Part shown: piece after piece, positions 5,804-25,953 of the stretch | Layout of the letters: every line of letters starts with the position of its first letter | Numbering within the stretch: position 1 is the first letter of the stretch | IMG/VR virus record: IMGVR_UViG_3300025835_000036 | Coordinates: 1 to 25,953 of that record | Direction: 5' to 3' (one strand) | Origin: a virus | Taxonomy: Duplodnaviria; Caudoviricetes | DNA length: 25,953 nt | Program-made: the position numbers and the translations under genes | The notes under the pieces: generated by a model | Databases searched by the model: none | Seen by the model: the letters and a program-made list of their open reading frames with translations, nothing else | Told to the model about the DNA's origin: nothing

Positions 5804-8086
5804 ATGGCGAACAAAAATCAAGAAAATTATATCGAGTTTCTTAAAACAAAAAAAAGAACTGTAGGAGCTGTTGGTAAGGCTGTTGATCTGAAAGATATAA
5901 ATTCAGTACTCTTTGATTTTCAAAAAGACATAGTCTATTGGGCTACTAAAATTGGTAGATGCGCAATATTCGCTGATACCGGATTGGGGAAAAGTTTTAT
6001 GCAGTTGGAATGGGGACGGTTAATGGGTAATAGCTGTTTGATATTTGCGCCATTATCTGTTGGCAGGCAGACCATAAGAGAAGCAAAGAAAATAAATATT
6101 GCTGTTAAATATATCAGAGATAAAAAAGAAATTACTAAAAATGGAATTTTTATAACTAACTATGAAAATATAGATAAATTCCAGAATATTAAAATAGATA
6201 GTATAGTTTTAGATGAAAGTTCGATACTAAAAGCTATTGACGGGACTACGAGAAAAAAGTTAATTGATTATTTCACAGGCATAAAATATAAATTATGCTG
6301 TACTGCGACCCCATCCCCAAACGATTACACTGAATTAGGAAATCACGCTGAGTTTTTAAATATATGCTCAACAGCTGAAATGCTATCAACTTATTTTGTG
6401 AATGCAAACAAGGAAAGTGAAAGAGTCACCGGTTCGGGTGAAATAATAAGAATCAAACACTCAAATAAAAATGGTACACAGTGGAGATTAAGGCATAACG
6501 CTCATAAAGATTATTTTAGGTGGCTATCATCTTGGGCAATGGCTATAAGGAAGCCATCTGATTTAGGGTACAAAGACGACGGATATGTTTTACCTGAATT
6601 AAACATCATTCCATTGATAGTTAGGTCTGATTATGTTCCTACCGATGAGCTATTCTTTTCGGGGTTAAAGGGGTTGAAAGACCGAGCAGCGATTAGAGAT
6701 TCAAGTGCAATCGGAAAAATTGAAAAGATAAAAGAACTAACAAATAATAAAAATCAATGGGTTATATGGTGTGGATTGGGGAAAGAATCATCATTAGCAA
6801 AACAGAATATTGACGGATCTATTGAAGTTAAGGGAAATGATGATGTGGAATATAAATCTAAAAGTTTTGAAGACTTCCAGGATAATAAAATCAGGGTGCT
6901 TATTACAAAGGGTAAAATAGGTGGGTTTGGAATGAACTTTCAACAATGTAGCAATATAATATTCTTTGGACTAAATGATAGCTGGGAAATGTTCTATCAA
7001 TGTGTGCGGAGATGTTATCGGTTTGGACAGAAAAAAGAAGTAAATGTTTATATAATAATTTCTGAATTAGAATTACAAATTTATGAGAACATAAAAAGGA
7101 AGGGTGAGATGGCGGAAAGAATGATGAACGGACTAATCGAAGAAGTCAAGGGGTATGAGCTTGAAAAACTTGGTAAAAACAAAAATCTAAAAATAGATTC
7201 TAATTATCAAGAGGACACAATCACGACCGATAAATATACTGCTATGCTCGGGGATTCCTGCAAAAGGTTACCCGAAATTAAATCAAAGTCAATTCACCTA
7301 AGCATATTTTCACCCCCCTTTGCAGACCTTTATACATATTCAGCAACAGACCGGGACTTAGGAAACTCAAAAGATTGGGATGAGTTTTTTAAACATTATA
7401 AATATATAGTCAAAGAATTATTAAGGGTTACTATCGATGGTAGAATTAGTTGTGTTCATACATCTGACATTCCGGCAATGCAGGGCAAAGATGGATATAT
7501 TGGTATAAGAAATTTTCCTGGCGCAGTAATTAAATGTCACGAAGAAAATGGATGGATATTTCACGGCAGGGCAATAGTAACAAAAAACCCACAAGCACAA
7601 GCGATAAGGACACATTCAAAGGCTTTATTATTTGCTCAACTTAGGAGAGATTCAAGTGATTCACGTCCTGCATTATTAGACCATATACTTATTTTCAAAA
7701 AACCCGGCAAGCCTGAAATTCCTGTTAATCCAGTTAAAAATGGTGAAGTCGATAATGAGAAATGGATAAATTGGGCAGGTGGTATCTGGACTGGAATAAG
7801 CGAATCAGATACTTTACAATATACAACGGCAAGAGACAAGGACGACGAAAAACATATTTGCCCCTTGCAATTAGGGACTATTGAGAGATGCATAAAATTA
7901 TATTCAAACCCCGGAGAAACTATATTGACTCCATTTATGGGAATTGGTAGTGAAGCATATCAGGCTATTAAGTTTGGTAGAAAAGCAATCGGCATTGAAT
8001 TAAAACCGTCTTATTTTAGAATAGCAAAACAGAACCTTGCAAATATTGAAAACGAGCAAAATCAAGAAACATTATTTTCTATTTAG
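5804..8086 (+). CDS. SF2 (SNF2-like) helicase fused to a beta-class N4/N6 DNA methyltransferase
   Basis: ADTGLGKS, LDESS, TATP and QCVRRCYRFGQ helicase motifs. C-terminal FSPPF (motif IV, typical of m4C enzymes) precedes PFMGIGS (motif I). Confidence 0.9.
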   Translation: MANKNQENYIEFLKTKKRTVGAVGKAVDLKDINSVLFDFQKDIVYWATKIGRCAIFADTGLGKSFMQLEWGRLMGNSCLIFAPLSVGRQTIREAKKINIAVKYIRDKKEITKNGIFITNYENIDKFQNIKIDSIVLDESSILKAIDGTTRKKLIDYFTGIKYKLCCTATPSPNDYTELGNHAEFLNICSTAEMLSTYFVNANKESERVTGSGEIIRIKHSNKNGTQWRLRHNAHKDYFRWLSSWAMAIRKPSDLGYKDDGYVLPELNIIPLIVRSDYVPTDELFFSGLKGLKDRAAIRDSSAIGKIEKIKELTNNKNQWVIWCGLGKESSLAKQNIDGSIEVKGNDDVEYKSKSFEDFQDNKIRVLITKGKIGGFGMNFQQCSNIIFFGLNDSWEMFYQCVRRCYRFGQKKEVNVYIIISELELQIYENIKRKGEMAERMMNGLIEEVKGYELEKLGKNKNLKIDSNYQEDTITTDKYTAMLGDSCKRLPEIKSKSIHLSIFSPPFADLYTYSATDRDLGNSKDWDEFFKHYKYIVKELLRVTIDGRISCVHTSDIPAMQGKDGYIGIRNFPGAVIKCHEENGWIFHGRAIVTKNPQAQAIRTHSKALLFAQLRRDSSDSRPALLDHILIFKKPGKPEIPVNPVKNGEVDNEKWINWAGGIWTGISESDTLQYTTARDKDDEKHICPLQLGTIERCIKLYSNPGETILTPFMGIGSEAYQAIKFGRKAIGIELKPSYFRIAKQNLANIENEQNQETLFSI

Positions 8087-8946: not shown

Positions 8947-10246
8947 ACTAAACAGCCCGGAGATTGAAACAGAAATATTAGGAATCATTTTATCTAATTC
9001 AAAGTCAATCGAAACAGCAATAGGGTTATTAAACCCGGATTGTTTTTATAGCCTATGTAATAAAACAATTTATCAGGCTATGTTACATCTTTATTCCGAA
9101 AACAAACCGATTGATGTTGTCAATCTTTATGAATACGGAAATAAGTCCAGGCTTAAAAATATACTTGCGATAAGCAGTCTGATATCTTCACCACTTATTA
9201 TGGAAAATCGGTGCAAGATTTTGGTAGAACTTTGGATGAAAAGGCAAATAATAAAATCTTTAAATGAGGCATTAAAAAACGCTAAAGACGAAGACCCTTT
9301 TGAATTATTAAATTCAATGAGCGATACTATTTATAGAATTGAAAATCATTTACAGAGTTTATCAGAAGAAAAAACGATGTATAACGATTTAGATAAAGTT
9401 TTTTCTGATATAATTAAAAAAATGAGAAACAAAGAGCCTGAAGGTTTAATGAGCAAAACATTTCCTTCATTGAACAACGCAACTGGTGGTATAATGCCTA
9501 CAGATTATGTTATAATCTATGGAGCGTACAAGGCTGGCAAATCAACAGTTGCTGAACAGATAATGTTAGATGTTGCGTTAAACACTAAGGCTGTAGGACT
9601 GTTTAGTTTAGAGATGAGCAAAACAGCATTATATCACAAAGCTCTTTCAATGCGTACCGGGATTGATTATATGAAACTTAGAAATCCAAAACACTTTGGA
9701 TTAAGCGATGAAGAACTAAAATCATTTGCAGAAAAGACAAGAGAAGTTTTCAGTAAAACAAAAATTTACATTGCAGATAAAATATTTGATATAGACCAAA
9801 TTATAGCAAAGATGAAATTATGGAAACGCAAATATAAAATTGAACTGTTTGTAGTTGATTACATTGGTCTTTTGGAATCCTCAAGAAATTATGAAAAGAG
9901 ATATTTGGCAATAGGTGACTTTTCACGGAAAATGAAAAACACAGCTAAAATGCTTGAAGTGCCGATTATAGCGGTTTCGCAAGCTAATGACGATAACAAA
10001 ACAGCCGAGAGTAAGAACCCGGCACGAGATGCTGATTTTGTAATTTCGGTTATAAAACCATTTGGAACGCCATTAAAAAACATCAAGAAAAAAAATGGCA
10101 GTCTTTTCACTTTTGATGAGTCGCATTTTTTAATAACATTAGAAAATTCACGGCACGGATTAAACCGACAAAATTTTGTTGCAGGATTTGTAAACAATAA
10201 TTTTGTTGAGTTGGATTTAGAAGGTGTTGATGGATGTTTTATTTAA
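8933..10246 (+). CDS. dnaB: replicative DNA helicase, DnaB family
   Basis: N-terminal DnaB domain (E..ILG...F...KPIDVV), GAYKAGKS, FSLEMS, VVDYIGLL, VSQAN and ARDAD motifs. TTG start is uncertain. Confidence 0.9.
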   Translation: MTTSKLNSPEIETEILGIILSNSKSIETAIGLLNPDCFYSLCNKTIYQAMLHLYSENKPIDVVNLYEYGNKSRLKNILAISSLISSPLIMENRCKILVELWMKRQIIKSLNEALKNAKDEDPFELLNSMSDTIYRIENHLQSLSEEKTMYNDLDKVFSDIIKKMRNKEPEGLMSKTFPSLNNATGGIMPTDYVIIYGAYKAGKSTVAEQIMLDVALNTKAVGLFSLEMSKTALYHKALSMRTGIDYMKLRNPKHFGLSDEELKSFAEKTREVFSKTKIYIADKIFDIDQIIAKMKLWKRKYKIELFVVDYIGLLESSRNYEKRYLAIGDFSRKMKNTAKMLEVPIIAVSQANDDNKTAESKNPARDADFVISVIKPFGTPLKNIKKKNGSLFTFDESHFLITLENSRHGLNRQNFVAGFVNNNFVELDLEGVDGCFI

Positions 10247-10266
10247 ATGAAAAAAGGAGAAAAAAA

Positions 10267-10371
10267 ATGAAAAAACAAGAAAAGAAATACGGTGTACGCT
10301 ATTACCCGTGCCCGCAAATACTTGAACCACAAAAATTTATCCCCCCTCAAGACCTGGAGGAAATTGATTGA
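10267..10371 (+). CDS. small hypothetical protein (34 aa)
   Basis: AGGAG RBS; MKKQEKKYGVRYYPCPQILEPQKFIPPQDLEEID*. Confidence 0.35.
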   Translation: MKKQEKKYGVRYYPCPQILEPQKFIPPQDLEEID

Positions 10372-10417
10372 TGAAATTAGAAAAATTAAAAAAAATATTA
10401 AAAATATGGCAATTTAT

Positions 10418-11257
10418 ATGAGTGAAAAGGAAATAAAGGTAGGGCGTTTTCTTTTTAATCAAATTTATCTTGGTGATAGTTTGGATATTATAAAAGATAT
10501 CCCGACCGCTTCGATTGATTTGATTTTAGAAGATATGCCCCTACCACTGAAGCATACAACAGCGTGCGAATGGGATGTTAAAATTGATTTACAACTTTAT
10601 TGGGAAACGAGACTTAGAATTTTGAAGCCAGCGGGCGTAGTTATTTTAACAGGTAGCCAGCCATTTACAAGTAAATTAGTGATGAGTAATTATAAGATGT
10701 TCTATAAGATGTTTAAGTATGAATTGATTTGGGAAAAGAATTATAGGGGTGGATTTATTTTAGCAAAAAAGCAACCAATGAAATATCACGAAAATATTTT
10801 AATTTTTACGGCTGGCGGAAACACTTACAACCTCCAGTTTGAGGATTATGCGGAAACAACAAAAGTAAGATTTAAGAATGACGGCAAGATCAATAGTAAA
10901 AAAATGCAAGATGTAAATTATAATAATGAAATACAGGGAATAAAAAGAGTGGCTGCCGAGGTTAATTTAGGAAGGGGAGCATACCCCAAAAGCATACAAA
11001 GGTTTAAGGGTGTGCCGAATTGTAATGGATTGCGTAAACATCCAACCCAAAAGCCCGTTGGCTTGTTTGAATATCTTATCCGCACATACACAAATGAAGG
11101 AGATTTAGTGTTTGATGGTTTTGGAGGATCGGGTACAACCGCTATTGCTGCATACAAAAGTAAACGAAATTTTATAGTAATAGAAAAAGAAAAGAAATAT
11201 TTTGATTTAGCTGTGAAACGGTTGGACATCGAACGGGCACAGCACACGATATTTTAA
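10418..11257 (+). CDS. beta-class N6/N4 DNA methyltransferase with a disrupted catalytic motif (possibly inactive)
   Basis: HPTQKPV, YTNEGDLVFDGFGGSGTT and TTACEWD are typical. Motif IV reads DMPLPLKH instead of D(L/P/M)PY. Start chosen at MSEKE; 10406 is also possible. Confidence 0.8.
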   Translation: MSEKEIKVGRFLFNQIYLGDSLDIIKDIPTASIDLILEDMPLPLKHTTACEWDVKIDLQLYWETRLRILKPAGVVILTGSQPFTSKLVMSNYKMFYKMFKYELIWEKNYRGGFILAKKQPMKYHENILIFTAGGNTYNLQFEDYAETTKVRFKNDGKINSKKMQDVNYNNEIQGIKRVAAEVNLGRGAYPKSIQRFKGVPNCNGLRKHPTQKPVGLFEYLIRTYTNEGDLVFDGFGGSGTTAIAAYKSKRNFIVIEKEKKYFDLAVKRLDIERAQHTIF

Positions 11258-12347: not shown

Positions 12348-12563
12348 ATGTCAAAAATTCAAAATGTAATTGACCATTTAAAAAGGTACGGTAAAATAAA
12401 CGGCAAACAAATAGTTTATGATTACCACCTAAACTACCCATCTTGTGTGATTAGGGACATAAGAGAGAGAAAAAACCTTAAAATCAAATCAGTTCCTGTA
12501 GCAGGGACTAAGTTTGTTGATTATTGTTTAATCCGAAATACAGAACTTAATGTGAAATTTTAG
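12348..12563 (+). CDS. small winged-HTH protein
   Basis: QNVIDHLKRYGKI......Y......IRDIR pattern common to small phage HTH proteins; GAGGTG RBS. Confidence 0.6.
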   Translation: MSKIQNVIDHLKRYGKINGKQIVYDYHLNYPSCVIRDIRERKNLKIKSVPVAGTKFVDYCLIRNTELNVKF

Positions 12564-12683
12564 AATAGAGACGATAAGGTGCTAAGAAATTGTGTAAACC
12601 AGAATTTAGGGTTGCACGTTTTGAATTGTGCTATCGGCGCAATACCTGTGGGAACATTATTTGAAAACAAAAGAGGAAGATAA
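12564..12683 (+). pseudogene. probable C-terminal remnant of a C5 DNA methyltransferase
   Basis: Reading frame without a clear start, NRDDKVLRNCVNQNLGLHVLNCAIG...TLF; LRNCV..LG.H.L resembles C5-MTase motif X. Confidence 0.45.
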
Positions 12684-12693
12684 AATATGGACT

Positions 12694-13341
12694 TCAGCCT
12701 GTTTTGCTGATGAGGAATAAACTTATAAATTTAGTGTAAGTTTTTTTCTCCGCAAAAACCCACCCCGTATAAAATTCTGGCAAATTATAGCTCTTCTCAG
12801 AGCTATCAAACCAGCCATATTCCCCAAGCATTTCTTGGCTTGTTTGGTAAAAGAATTCGGGATATTCTTTTATCGAAACCCTTTTAACCTTTTTTGCATT
12901 TGCTTGCAAAAATTTGAGTTTTCTTTCTTCTAAATTTTTCTTTTCTTCTTCAGCATTTTTAGAAGCTGTTTTTGAAAGGTTTAATTTTTCAAGGTAATCA
13001 TTCCAATTAGAAGCAACATCACAAATTTCCTTGGCGTTCAAAAAATAAGTTTTCTTCATTCCACCGCCGTAGGATTTTGGCAGTAATCCGGCGTGATGCC
13101 ATTCCATATTTGGGGTTGCATATTTTATCACCTCCCGGACTGTATCAACATCCAGTCCGGTTGCTTTTTTGAAAAGCTGCGTCGCTTTACCAAGCGTTAG
13201 CTTTCCTTCGTCATCACAAGCATCCTCGTGACGGTTGCTTGCAAACTTCCCCTCATTTAACCCTCCCCCGATGTTGAAATTATCGCACCATTCTATTTTG
13301 TGATAATTTTCATAAATTTTTTTTAATTTTTCTAATTTCAT
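12694..13341 (-). CDS. hypothetical phage protein with an EWHH motif (215 aa)
   Basis: Start trimmed to MKLEKLKK (13341) to avoid overlap with the upstream gene; ASNRH...G and MEWHHAG...KKTYF segments. Confidence 0.7.
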   Translation of the reverse strand: MKLEKLKKIYENYHKIEWCDNFNIGGGLNEGKFASNRHEDACDDEGKLTLGKATQLFKKATGLDVDTVREVIKYATPNMEWHHAGLLPKSYGGGMKKTYFLNAKEICDVASNWNDYLEKLNLSKTASKNAEEEKKNLEERKLKFLQANAKKVKRVSIKEYPEFFYQTSQEMLGEYGWFDSSEKSYNLPEFYTGWVFAEKKTYTKFISLFLISKTG

Positions 13342-13360
13342 TTTTTTTAGTTTAAAATAA

Positions 13361-13383
13361 ATAAGGCAGCATAGCTGCCTTAT
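13361..13383. terminator. perfect intergenic hairpin (terminator, processing or stability element)
   Basis: ATAAGGCAGC-ATA-GCTGCCTTAT, 10-bp stem, followed on the minus strand by TTATTTT. Confidence 0.5.
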
Positions 13384-13384
13384 A

Positions 13385-13732
13385 TCACCTCCATTGCACA
13401 AATTTGAATGTGGAGGTTTTAACTCCATCTTTTTCCTCAACCACTCTTTCGGTGGTTGGGAAAATTGGTTCACGGCCTGCGTTTGACAGGCGTGAAATTA
13501 CAGAACAAGTCAAAGAGTACTCTCCTTGAATTGTTACTGTATGCTCGGGAAAATCCTGAGCAATCTGGCAGATCAAGTCATCTGCCAAATCTATTACTGC
13601 ATCTTTTGATAAAGATGCAGTAATGTCTGGGAACGGAATGTAATCAATTACATCCCATCCCTGTTTCTGATCATCACTCCACTTATCTGGAGGATGATTT
13701 GAAATTACTAAAAGCTTTTCTATTTTTTTCAT
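13385..13732 (-). CDS. Csx20/Unk01-like CRISPR-associated ring-nuclease homologue (115 aa)
   Basis: SNHPPDKWSDDQ, IPFPDI, TIQGEYSLT, PTTERVVEEKDGVKTSTFKFVQWR match the family pattern SNHP..W...Q / FP.I / .GE / TTER...E..G.K.S.F.F..(F/W)R. AAGGAG RBS at 13738-13743. Confidence 0.75.
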   Translation of the reverse strand: MKKIEKLLVISNHPPDKWSDDQKQGWDVIDYIPFPDITASLSKDAVIDLADDLICQIAQDFPEHTVTIQGEYSLTCSVISRLSNAGREPIFPTTERVVEEKDGVKTSTFKFVQWR

Positions 13733-13745
13733 TTTAACTCCTTTT

Positions 13746-13913
13746 TTATTTAATTTCTTTGTAGGTAACTTTGTTAAAATTACCATTTCTATAACTATAT
13801 TCTTTTTCCCCCTCCAAATCAATGGTTTTTATAATTTTTATGAGCTCCCCTTTTCTGTAAACGCCGAAATTTTCTAAGGCGATTACTTTATATTTTTTTT
13901 CTTGTTTTTTCAT
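13746..13913 (-). CDS. small basic hypothetical protein (55 aa)
   Basis: Manual translation MKKQEKKYKVIALENFGVYRKGELIKIIKTIDLEGKKEYSYRNGNFNKVTYKEIK*. Fills the gap between the promoter and the Csx20-like gene. Confidence 0.55.
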   Translation of the reverse strand: MKKQEKKYKVIALENFGVYRKGELIKIIKTIDLEGEKEYSYRNGNFNKVTYKEIK

Positions 13914-13957
13914 TTTAGAACTTCTTTTTTCATTTTCTATTTAATTTCTTTAAACAC

Positions 13958-13986
13958 AATATAACACAAAACAACACAAATGTCAA
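13958..13986 (-). promoter_or_regulatory. strong sigma70-type promoter of the leftward insert
   Basis: TTGACA-17 nt-TATATT on the minus strand, with an A/T-rich upstream region. Confidence 0.75.
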
Positions 13987-14395
13987 GTAAAATCGGTATG
14001 AAAATAAAAAATATTTTGAAAGCGATTTAAGCGAGGATAATATAATTATACTCAATGTGTAAGGTGGTTATGGGTTAGAATTTAAGCTAAATTCACAACA
14101 TTTGAGCAAAAATAGCTTAAAAACGCACTTTTTTGGATGATATAATATATGGGCCGCCTCGAGATCGTGGCTTGTAGTGCATATACGCAAGCCGTATATA
14201 GCTTGTTTTATTAAAATTTTTGTCTTAAAAAGGAAGGCGAGGCAAAAAGTCAATGTTCGGTAGATATTACCGAGAATTATTTGTATCTTAATTTGTATTT
14301 TAATTAAAATTTAATATTTTTGTAAAAAGTAGAATAAGATTCTGCGTTGTTAGTTGTGGTTTGATTTAAAAGATGGAATTAAGAAATTTAATTAA

Positions 14396-14542
14396 ATGAT
14401 AATGAATCAAGGCTCAAAAAATATGATTGCCGATCAGAAACCTGTACGCCTAAAAGTGAGGCAAACAAAAGAAGAAATAAAAAACAAAAAAAGAATATCA
14501 GAAACAATAAAGAAATTTCTGAACAGAAAATTGTATGATTAA
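14396..14542 (+). CDS. small basic hypothetical protein (48 aa)
   Basis: Manual ORF MIMNQGSKNMIADQKPVRLKV...KLYD* overlapping the ParB-N start. Confidence 0.35.
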   Translation: MIMNQGSKNMIADQKPVRLKVRQTKEEIKNKKRISETIKKFLNRKLYD

Positions 14543-15134
14543 TTGGAAACTTAAAAAAATAGCGGTTTCCGATTTAAAAGAGAATTCTAAAAACCCAAGA
14601 AATTTAACAGTTAAAGGTTTAGACGATCTTGAGAAATCTATATCTAAATTTGGAGTTGCCGAACCACTTGTTGTTAATACTGATTTAATAATTTGTGGAG
14701 GACACGGACGCAAAAAAATTTTAGAGAGATTAAATATAAAAGAGGTTGATTGTTATTTTCCTTCAAAGAAGCTTACAAAGAAAGAGTTTGATGAACTAAA
14801 CATAAGATTAAATAAAAATATTGCAGGAAGTTTCAATTTTGATATTCTTGCAAATGAATTTGAACTGCCGGATTTGTTAGAATGGGGATTTGAAAAATTT
14901 GAGTTAGGTATGATTGATGAGATAGGATTTCCCGAATTAAGAGACGGAGACAAAGAACCATTTCAACAAATGACATTCACGCTTGCTGATAAACAGGCCG
15001 AAATAGTTCAGGAAAGCCTAAGGGACGCAAGGGCAAAAGAAGATTTTAATTATTGTGAGACTTATCAGAATGAAAACAGCAACGGTAATGCTTTATATTT
15101 TATAGTGAGCCAATGGTTGACGTTAAGCAAATAA
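14535..15134 (+). CDS. ParB/Srx N-terminal-domain protein
   Basis: LKENSKNPR, SISKFGVAEPLVVN...IICGGHGR, NIRLNKN.AG.F. Such genes commonly precede phage DNA-modification genes and TerS. Confidence 0.85.
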   Translation: MINWKLKKIAVSDLKENSKNPRNLTVKGLDDLEKSISKFGVAEPLVVNTDLIICGGHGRKKILERLNIKEVDCYFPSKKLTKKEFDELNIRLNKNIAGSFNFDILANEFELPDLLEWGFEKFELGMIDEIGFPELRDGDKEPFQQMTFTLADKQAEIVQESLRDARAKEDFNYCETYQNENSNGNALYFIVSQWLTLSK

Positions 15135-15853
15135 TATTGAAGCCGATAGCATCGAAACCGGCAAACGATTTTATTAAAAAACATCATTACTCTGGTAAGG
15201 TTGTTAATAATTCCGTTTTACATTTCGGTTGTTTCTTAGATAATAGGTTGCACGGAGTTTTAAGTTTCGGAAGCAGTCTAGATAAAAGGAAAGTGATAGG
15301 GCTAGTCAAAGGCACAAAGTGGAATGAATTTCTTGAGCTAAACAGAATGGCGTTCGATGAAATATTACCTAAAAATTCGGAATCAAGATGTATTGCTATT
15401 GCTATAATGTTAATTAGAAGAAACTATCCACACATAAAATGGATTATCAGCTTTGCAGATGGGGTTCAATGCGGGGATGGGACAATTTATAGAGCAAGTG
15501 GATTTCGCTTGACTGGAATAAACACAAGTGCGGAATTATTACGGATGCCCGGTGGCGAGGTAAGGCATATGATAGCAATGCACACGGACAAAAAACTTGT
15601 TTTTGAGATGAGTGGTAAAATGGCAAGCATAAAAGAACTTGCAAAACATCTAAATGGAGAAGTTATGAGTGGTAGTCAATTAAGATATGTTTATCTAATA
15701 GATAAGTCTTGCAAAATCACAGTCCCAATATTACCGTTCAGTAAAATCGATGAAATGGGTGCGGGGATGTATAAGGGACAAAAGAGACAAATTAAATGCG
15801 GTAATGTTGTAAAAGAGCATATCTCACCTACCAGTGAGAAGGTGGCAGTGTGA
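15113..15853 (+). CDS. Mom-family (GNAT-fold) adenine hypermodification enzyme
   Basis: KHHYSG, LELNRM...PKNSESR.I, IISFAD..Q..DGTIYRASGF are the Mom-like signature. Confidence 0.8.
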   Translation: MVDVKQIILKPIASKPANDFIKKHHYSGKVVNNSVLHFGCFLDNRLHGVLSFGSSLDKRKVIGLVKGTKWNEFLELNRMAFDEILPKNSESRCIAIAIMLIRRNYPHIKWIISFADGVQCGDGTIYRASGFRLTGINTSAELLRMPGGEVRHMIAMHTDKKLVFEMSGKMASIKELAKHLNGEVMSGSQLRYVYLIDKSCKITVPILPFSKIDEMGAGMYKGQKRQIKCGNVVKEHISPTSEKVAV

Positions 15854-15888: not shown

Positions 15889-16407
15889 ATGAAAAAACAA
15901 ATAAAAAAGAAAGTTGGCAGACCAAAAACTTTAATAAATGGAAACAATTCCGGAAATCAAACCAAAAATCAAGCCAGAAATCAAACCAAAAATCAAACCA
16001 GAAATCAAACCAAAAACTTAGGTGGTAGACCTCGGATAGTTTTTTCCGAATCTCAATGGAAAGAATTTGAAAGCCTTTGTGCTTTACAATGTACAAAAAT
16101 AGAAATTACAGAATGGTTTAATGTTGACGACAAAACTTTAGAAAATCTTTTAAAAAAACGCTATAAAAGAGGTTTTTCCGAAGTTTTTGCACAAAAAAGG
16201 ACTAAGGGATTAGTATCATTAAGAAGACGGCAATTTCAATTGGCAGAGACTAATCCAGCATTAGCCATCTTTTTGGGTAAGAACTATTTAAGCCAGAGAG
16301 ATAAAACAGAGATAGAGCATTCTGGTAGTCTTGAAGAGCGTATTCGCAATATGACCGAAGAGGATAGGCTTAAACGTATTGCGATATTAAAGCAAAAGAT
16401 TAAATGA
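15889..16407 (+). CDS. terminase small subunit (HTH type)
   Basis: GRP motifs, HTH (CTKIEITEWFNVDDKTL), LRRRQFQLA...LAIFLGKNYLSQRDK.EIEHSG; directly before TerL. Confidence 0.85.
   Translation: MKKQIKKKVGRPKTLINGNNSGNQTKNQARNQTKNQTRNQTKNLGGRPRIVFSESQWKEFESLCALQCTKIEITEWFNVDDKTLENLLKKRYKRGFSEVFAQKRTKGLVSLRRRQFQLAETNPALAIFLGKNYLSQRDKTEIEHSGSLEERIRNMTEEDRLKRIAILKQKIK
15955..16014 (+). repeat. 12-bp in-frame tandem repeat x5 in TerS
   Basis: AATCAARCCARA x5 encoding NQTK-NQAR-NQTK-NQTR-NQTK. Confidence 0.9.
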
Positions 16408-20425: not shown

Positions 20426-20498
20426 TTTGTAACCTTTAAAAGGTTCTATATTTTGTAACCTTTAAAAGGTTCTGGTTTTGTAACCTTTAAAAGGTTCT
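20426..20498. repeat. three identical 22-bp direct repeats with a palindromic core
   Basis: TTTGTAACCTTTAAAAGGTTCT at 20426, 20452 and 20477; linkers of 4 and 3 nt. Confidence 0.95.
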
Positions 20499-20722
20499 AT
20501 ACACTAAATCGATTTTGGAAGTTATGATAAAGGTTATGGTAATTTATAAAATTTATGCAACCATAATTTTATTAAGAAAAAATAAATTAAAATTTGTTTT
20601 TTAATAAAAAAAATATATATTAGTAAAAGTTAGACACATAGGGATTTGGTATTTCCACCGTAAAGGAAAGACGTTGTAGCAGACGAACTGCGTAATAATC
20701 GTAAACAGAAATAAGGGGAGTT

Positions 20723-23980: not shown

Positions 23981-24300
23981 TAGCACATATTTATAAACCC
24001 GGGATTATTATACAAAGATTCACAAGTGCATCAGATGGAATGGGCGGGTTTACAGATACTTGGGCAACTCACTTAACTATCTCAGGATATATAAGGACTT
24101 TATCAGGTGAAGAGAGATTATCAGGTGATAAACAAACTGTGTATGCAACTAATAGATTGTATTGTGAAAATGCAGATATAACAGAAAAGGATCAAGTTGT
24201 GGATGATTCAAATACATATCAAATAAAATTTATTAATCAAAAACTTGATTTAAAAAGTACGGTTAGATTTTTAGAAATAGATTTATTGAAAATAAATTGA
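23977..24300 (+). CDS. head closure/stopper protein (SPP1 gp16-like)
   Basis: IQR.....DGMGG....W...LSG.E, DITEKD.V...Y.I. Confidence 0.85.
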   Translation: MIAHIYKPGIIIQRFTSASDGMGGFTDTWATHLTISGYIRTLSGEERLSGDKQTVYATNRLYCENADITEKDQVVDDSNTYQIKFINQKLDLKSTVRFLEIDLLKIN

Positions 24301-24405
24301 ATATGAAAATAAATTGAATATGAAAATAAATTGAATATGAAAATAAATTAAATATGAAAATAAATTAAATATGAAAATAAATTAAATATGAAAATAAATT
24401 GAATA
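24287..24405 (+). repeat. 17-bp tandem repeat x7
   Basis: TGAAAATAAATTRAATA, seven copies (R = G,G,G,A,A,A,G). Confidence 0.95.
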
Positions 24406-24776
24406 TCTGGAATATAAAAGAATATCAGAAATATCTTAACCAGACTATTGCTGATAGATTAGTTGTAGCGGGTGAGCTTATAGTTTCTGTGACAAAAAAA
24501 AATATTAAAGGTACTGGTGAGCCGGGTTTGAAAGCTGTTGATACTGGTATGCTTTTAGGTAGTATTGATAAAAGTGAAGTAATAAAAGAAAGTGAAACCG
24601 TGCAAAAGATTGTGGTGGGTACACCAACTGAATATTCGCCTTATGTTTTTTTAGGAACTGTGAAGATGAGGGCAAGACCTTCTTTGCAAAGGGCGTTACT
24701 TGAGAATGGGAAAAAGATTGAAGAATTATTAGGTAAAGCTGGAAGCACGAAAACAACAATTGAGAAACCGCAATGA
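24399..24776 (+). CDS. tail completion protein (HK97 gp10-like)
   Basis: AVDTG.L.GSI, VGTPTEYSPYV.LGT.KMRARP.L; only a TTG start is available. Confidence 0.85.
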   Translation: MNIWNIKEYQKYLNQTIADRLVVAGELIVSVTKKNIKGTGEPGLKAVDTGMLLGSIDKSEVIKESETVQKIVVGTPTEYSPYVFLGTVKMRARPSLQRALLENGKKIEELLGKAGSTKTTIEKPQ

Positions 24777-25184: not shown

Positions 25185-25784
25185 ATGGCAGCAATATCAG
25201 GATCGGCAGGTTATGTAACTTATGGGGCAGCGTTGAATATAACCGGGATTACTAAAGCATCTTCAGCAGTAATCTCAGTTGCTGCAACTGCGGGATTTAC
25301 GGCGGGTGATAGAGTGATCATAAGAGGCGTTGTGGGGATGACAGAAATTAATGGACTTCACGGAACGGTTGTAAGTGTAGTCCTAAATATATCTATTACT
25401 GTTAATATCGACAGCTCAGCATTTACAATTTATACTTCGGGCGGGACTATTACACATACAATCGATGTCACTGGTTTCTCTTATACGGAAACAGCACAGG
25501 TAGCAGATGTAACAGATTCAAGTTCTACAACTTGGAAAGATTTTACCGCATCTGGGTATAAAGGTTTAGATGGTACATTTGAAGGTTTTTTAAAGTCTGG
25601 AATTAATCCGCCATCTTTTGGGTCAGAGATTAGTTTTGGTTTTTATGAAACAGATACGGCGAGTATGACTGGATCGGGTATACTAACGAGTAAGGCAGTA
25701 ACACTCACAGTTGATGGAACAGAAGCGGTTAAAGTTTCTTATTCATTTAAAGGAACGGGAACACAAACAGAAGTAAATTCATAA
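25185..25784 (+). CDS. tail tube protein with an inserted FCCH-like beta domain
   Basis: MAAISG..G, DVTDS...WKDF..G.K...G.FEG tube motifs. Insert ITGITKAS...GDRVII.GV.GMTEING...YTSGG. Confidence 0.8.
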   Translation: MAAISGSAGYVTYGAALNITGITKASSAVISVAATAGFTAGDRVIIRGVVGMTEINGLHGTVVSVVLNISITVNIDSSAFTIYTSGGTITHTIDVTGFSYTETAQVADVTDSSSTTWKDFTASGYKGLDGTFEGFLKSGINPPSFGSEISFGFYETDTASMTGSGILTSKAVTLTVDGTEAVKVSYSFKGTGTQTEVNS

Positions 25785-25803
25785 ATTAAAAAGGGGAATA
25801 TAA

Positions 25804-25953
25804 ATGGCAACTTATTCAGGAAAAGATGGAGCGTTTAGCTACGGCGGGTCAGACTATCCTTGCACAGCTTGGAGCGTAACTCAAACAGCACAGGTAGCTG
25901 ACACAACAGATTCAAGTTCTACAACTTGGAAAGATTTCATTGCGTCCGGATTT
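25804..25953 (+). CDS. second tail tube paralogue (partial, no insert)
   Basis: Manual translation MATYSGKDGAFSYGGSDYPCTAWSVTQTAQVADTTDSSSTTWKDFIASGF; near-identical TAQVAD.TDSSSTTWKDF to the previous gene. Confidence 0.8.
   Translation, partial: MATYSGKDGAFSYGGSDYPCTAWSVTQTAQVADTTDSSSTTWKDFIASGF

Follow-up and report, generated by a model that had tools for sequence, protein, structure and literature searches.

A small stand-alone gene of the Csx20/MJ1673 family, carried by a virus, probably encodes a dimeric cA4 ring nuclease that is made early and keeps the type III CRISPR effectors of the host switched off. Action of such a ring nuclease as an anti-CRISPR, proposed in the initial annotation, is upheld as the most likely role, and the Csx20 family and the viral, stand-alone context are upheld as well. 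The stretch analysed (the window, 25,953 nucleotides) is a linear virus record estimated to be 40% complete, the remaining genome lying outside view. The gene is the middle one of three minus-strand ORFs situated between plus-strand replication and packaging blocks, with the following features:

12694..13341, minus strand: gene for a 215-aa accessory protein (EWHH motif), conserved, of no known family
13361..13383, minus strand: terminator candidate adjoining the csx20 stop, a 10-pair hairpin and then a T-rich run
13385..13732, minus strand: csx20 gene (Csx20/MJ1673 family), 115 aa, putative homodimeric cA4 ring nuclease
13738..13743, minus strand: Shine-Dalgarno-like AAGGAG, 5 nt ahead of the ATG at 13732
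13746..13913, minus strand: 55-aa ORF of no known family, the first gene of the cassette, replaced by other genes in related locus L010
13958..13986, minus strand: sigma-70-like promoter candidate situated 44 nt ahead of the 55-aa ORF, 11/12 consensus with a TG extended -10

The frame at 13385-13732 (minus strand) translates into 115 aa with no internal stop. It contains S11-N12-H13-P14, W18, Q22, F34-P35-D-I37 and Q69-G70-E71, and further on T93-T94-E95-R96, K105, S107, F109, F111 and W114-R115, so that the motifs read earlier in this frame are present, except that three residues, not two, separate SNHP from W. A longer start, TTG at 13822, appears in the ORF list and would give 145 aa. It is unlikely to be used, because AAGGAG stands 5 nt from the ATG and because the ATG at 13732 coincides with the N-termini of most homologues.

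By sequence comparison the gene belongs to the Csx20/MJ1673 family, in agreement with its first identification as Csx20. The PADLOC model PDLC01397 matches over its full length (E 1.7e-19, protein residues 8-115 on model positions 3-112 of 114), the joint Csx15/20 model is matched, and Pfam PF27247, labelled MJ1673 in the Atlas, is found on all 55 homologues accepted from 56 candidates. The window protein itself matched no Pfam family at E 0.01 in the local Pfam library; with the Csx20 models matched instead, the statement that the viral ring nuclease AcrIII-1 (DUF1874) is of a different family holds. The pairing of Csx20 with Unk01 in the initial annotation has to be given up: Unk_01 is apparently unrelated to CARF (PMC12409355), and the accessible part of PMC12830947 equates Unk01 with Crn4, a new fold unrelated to known ring nucleases.

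The NCBIfam equivalog NF040559 (CAS_Csx20) scores the window protein at 31.3 bits, below its 70-bit cut-off. As 11 of 12 cellular copies also fall below it (22-38 bits) and L061 alone passes, this model appears to cover another subfamily. Conserved residues were taken from our own 20-row alignment (8 rows of the window's branch, 12 cellular) and not from a published list. Seven columns are invariant and six nearly so, and the window protein keeps 12 of 12 family-wide conserved residues (N12, H13, W18, Q22, P35, G70, E71, T93, R96, F109, F111 and R115), a pattern (NH, W, Q, P, GE, T..R, F.F..R) common to CRISPR-linked and other copies.

Relatives of other architectures were also encountered. 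Three are tandem two-domain Csx20-Csx20 proteins (P0064, P0162 and P0190), two of them with charged tails, and in P0091 and P0116 Csx20 is fused to domains without known family; the front part of P0091 resembles, by eye, the gene after csx20 in L011. The Atlas cluster of rank 26 is an MJ1673 family, mostly viral, 29% of whose members also have a dihydrouridine synthase domain.

Modelling of the dimer, a check suggested at the outset, predicts that the window protein forms a homodimer. The score was 0.78, against 0.02 for the best of three controls, with at least 97% of contacts common to the model runs and pLDDT of at least 90. Of 30 known homodimers, 20 attain the mark for this score, as does one of 23 single chains, and the run used its own alignment and a ride-along AMP, both of which fall outside the calibration.

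The viral origin of the window is evident from its genes, which include terminase, an SPP1-type portal, capsid, DnaB, RecT, Mom and a methylase; csx20 is thus encoded by a virus record and stands outside a type III cas locus. The absence of nearby cas genes and arrays noted originally was confirmed within this record, itself about 40% complete: PADLOC detected no Cas match in the 39 other ORFs scanned, drawn from 74 mechanical ORFs of at least 50 aa, many of which overlap real genes. No CRISPR array was present among the 20 largest repeat families of the window or in Rfam at gathering thresholds, and a custom finder, a weak one that reported no array in any sequence given to it, returned none in the window. 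Thirteen sequencing runs contain the window or part of it, seven of them at least half of its words; their label is groundwater or aquifer metagenome.

Several genes of the window relate to DNA modification (5804-8086, 10292-11257 and 14535-15853): a SNF2-helicase-methylase fusion, an N6/N4 methylase, and ParB-like and Mom-like genes, a set consistent with anti-restriction. Repeats occur at 15941-16024 (a 12-nt repeat inside the small terminase gene), at 20426-20501 (three 25-nt direct repeats ahead of the scaffold gene) and at 24270-24423 (a 17-nt unit repeated in tandem, situated between head-completion and HK97-gp10-like genes). The tail region at 25185-25953 holds a 199-aa gene with an E1_FCCH-like segment and, after it, the first part of a paralogous ORF (87% over 67 nt).

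The relation of the gene to cellular copies was addressed with a tree. Pattern scans with the protein's own motifs retrieved window-like loci from viruses (2), genomes (3) and metagenomes (32); the sources of cellular copies were 201 genomes of the phylum of genome bin G003 (16 matches), 151 of its class (10 matches) and bin G002. In a tree of 44 rows, 23 window-like proteins separate from 21 cellular ones with split support of 100/99. Ten near-duplicates (L003, L015, L020, L024, L026, L030, L033 and L035-L037), the truncated L034, the partial L031 and L039, the window's own copies, the weak L109 and the long-branch L061, which had fallen on the window's side in a first tree, were left out; L041 came from the genome search and was called window-like once its sequence was inspected. 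In light of this split, the window gene is no fresh capture from the sampled cellular copies. The proposal that the window phage had captured a host-type gene is accordingly not borne out: the branch that holds the protein is diverse and cas-free, and none of the 21 cellular copies falls within it; these represent one phylum, and the tree, being unrooted, gives no direction of transfer.

The two sides differ in their surroundings. For 18 of the 21 cellular copies, a cas or CARF gene is fused to the copy or lies within about 1.5 kb of it. Of the genes around window-like copies 82, a part of the total, were scanned; none matched CARF, Csm or Cmr models, and two matched Cas4-like nucleases. Virion, packaging or lysis genes occur at 6 of the 23 window-like loci, 10 of which are shorter than 3.4 kb and say little on context. 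The window-like copy of L007 is part of a chromosomal contig, and those of L038 and L041 stand beside conjugation-like genes, labelled partly by eye. The branch is marked by a shorter first helix with W26, by Q69 in place of M, by P92 and by the terminal WR. Judged from its sequences it is under purifying selection: of 10 pairs compared, six have dN/dS of 0.04-0.20, and four, including both pairs with the window gene, are saturated at synonymous sites. Cas10 scored above cut-off on another contig in two of three bins with a branch copy, G002 and G003, in which binning may be wrong: G002 has Csm1 and its own Csx1-Csx20 pair in addition to the phage-type copy, and G003 has Cmr2. Broken copies were also seen, at L031:3198-3378 (an internally deleted Csx20 of less than 60 aa, then an HTH-like ORF) and at L034:389-1003 (an N-terminal part of Csx20 fused to other sequence).

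A bolder reading, possible but doubtful, sees in the branch a Csx20 lineage of long standing devoted to anti-defence, in which W26, Q69, P92 and W114-R115 would make the enzyme faster or broader than that of the host. Its carriers would be phages and conjugative elements, bacterial and perhaps also archaeal, and one 115-aa protein would then disarm both cA4-based type III CRISPR and cA3 signalling. A tblastn search of a phage collection with csx20 gave no match.

Locally, csx20 is part of an accessory cassette of variable content. L008, L009 and L010 have the gene without a single letter of difference, while the neighbouring genes vary. In L008 the 3' third of the 215-aa gene has diverged and an extra 55-aa ORF is present; the 84-nt skip of this locus occurs in 3 of 8 sequencing runs examined. 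L010 has different genes upstream of 13763, which have no coverage in the four runs examined, yet the X1 and X5 contigs break at 13760. The arrangement of the window from 13040 to 14009 is bridged by one contig (run X3).

The promoter in front of this cassette is a candidate by its position and not by its score, since the window has 2 sites of that score and shuffled sequence 2.16, so that the score is not above chance. ACACAA occurs three times at 10-nt spacing (13954, 13964 and 13974) across its spacer and -10. Sites with a hairpin and T-run such as the terminator candidate number 7 in 12500-14600 against 1.4 in shuffles.

The 215-aa protein is a neighbour of csx20 and not its fixed partner: its family, with 485 homologues among 770 candidates, occurs at 22 viral loci, and at none of these is Csx20 found within 2.5 kb. 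The protein has no PADLOC or NCBIfam match and no PDB match below E 0.18, and a 203-aa part of it has no match in Pfam or PHROGs. The family is widespread, highly conserved and often found among small accessory genes, and is a candidate for an anti-defence function. Separately, at three loci (L005:7676-8926, L006:9150-10001 and L021:3153-4538) uncharacterised genes related to one another lie just upstream of csx20.

Two mini-ORFs ahead of the methylase, at 10245-10421 on the plus strand, resemble the starts of the cassette genes at 13891-13935 and 13303-13341 on the minus strand. They encode 34 aa from 10267 and 16 aa from 10371, with the same first 8-9 residues as the 55-aa and 215-aa genes; the likeness (87% over 45 nt and 90% over 39 nt) is in A-rich DNA and could be due to chance. 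The mini-ORFs are possibly remnants of an earlier position of the cassette, or leaders in common through which genes are swapped.

A pathway can be envisaged from the promoter-like site, the predicted dimer and the one Csx20 characterized to date, which degrades cA4, and cA3 at tenfold protein, but not cA6 (PMC12409355). The cassette would be expressed early by host polymerase, and the Csx20 protein would dimerise and bind cA4 across the two-fold axis of the dimer. As with the tested Csx20, which is active in EDTA, cA4 would be cut without metal into linear products. By analogy with H13 of Csx15, His13 would take part in catalysis, and Arg96 and Arg115 may hold the phosphates. Removal of cA4 would leave effectors of the Csx1, Can2 or Cam1 type off, with an anti-CRISPR effect.

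The enzyme might instead be an anti-defence nuclease for other or wider cyclic nucleotides (cA3 of CBASS or type III systems, or cA3 and cA4 together) and not mainly for cA4. This is unlikely, given that the tested Csx20 strongly prefers cA4, that the predicted symmetric dimer would suit a two-fold ligand and that, in a fold search with the window protein, SAVED rows were tied with unrelated folds. Slightly less likely again is a sponge, which would bind cA4 and cut it slowly or not at all, like some Csx15 proteins. The accessible part of PMC13148439 describes Csx15 as sponging cA4 well and acting slowly as a nuclease, and the window protein does match the joint Csx15/20 model; every family-wide conserved residue is kept, however, and the same portion of that source states that sponging may be fruitless against a large type III signal and that Csx15 was not seen in phages.

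A cA4 ring nuclease could also serve a resident element or its host instead of lytic infection, damping the type III signalling that transcripts from an integrated prophage or conjugative element set off. The chromosomal copy and the two copies beside conjugation-like genes would fit such a service, as would the RecT and divergent gene layout of the window, which we take to resemble those of temperate phages. Such a service would involve no other chemistry than the favoured explanation does. The record, 40% complete, showed no integrase, and we consider this reading improbable. That csx20 is non-functional cargo from a decayed CRISPR locus is highly improbable: broken branch copies exist (the internally deleted L031; L034, truncated and fused), but the window gene has an intact frame, a ribosome-binding site and the conserved residues, dN/dS is low across the branch, and the branch stands apart from cellular copies. 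The preferred reading remains that of a viral cA4 ring nuclease directed against type III CRISPR.

Csx20 in phages and its proposed counter-defence role are already in print (PMC12409355; accessible part of PMC13551039), and the surprise is therefore limited. Csx20 was reported in 4 of 28,114 phage genomes (PMC12409355), and in five according to the accessible part of the preprint of that work. In its accessible part, PMC13551039 places csx20 homologues in Aca14-regulated operons and proposes them as co-opted counter-defence, the regulator alone having been tested. A search that reached few subscription journals found no published test of a viral Csx20. The contribution of the window locus is evidence for a separate, conserved branch of such copies and against a recent capture. 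The gene is also a good candidate for the missing experiment on a viral Csx20: were the protein to cut cA4 and rescue phage, the published guess that Csx20 is a phage anti-CRISPR would be confirmed, and the viral copies would be shown to make up a lineage of their own, mostly absent from cultured-phage collections. The pairing of phage-type and host-type copies in bin G002 would allow direct comparison of the speed and breadth of the viral enzyme.

To our knowledge, validated viral ring nuclease families are few. AcrIII-1 (Crn2, DUF1874) is a validated viral cA4 ring nuclease that works as an anti-CRISPR. The role proposed for the window protein is alike, that of a small dimeric viral enzyme destroying cA4, but the family is different, and AcrIII-1 is proven whereas the role given here is inferred. 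Crn4 (formerly Unk01) is likewise a small dimeric ring nuclease, phage and plasmid copies of which have been proposed as anti-CRISPRs, but its fold, by the available part of PMC12830947, is unrelated to those of other ring nucleases, whereas the window protein matches Csx20 models. Published phage copies of Csx20 (PMC12409355; the csx20-aca14 operon in the accessible part of PMC13551039) share with the window gene a position outside a CRISPR locus, a small accessory operon and a proposed counter-defence role; unlike in the csx20-aca14 operon, no RHH/Aca14-like gene was identified in the window cassette. The closest likeness is to Csx20 itself (PDLC01397, PF27247, NF040559; PMC12409355), in the full-length profile, the conserved residues, a length of about 115-125 aa and the predicted homodimer. 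Unlike CRISPR-associated Csx20, the window copy is stand-alone in a virus record, on its own branch (100/99) and below the NF040559 cut-off, and it differs from cellular Csx20 in having GW-D, QGE, FPTTER and a terminal WR, with 25-37% identity to the 12 cellular copies aligned.
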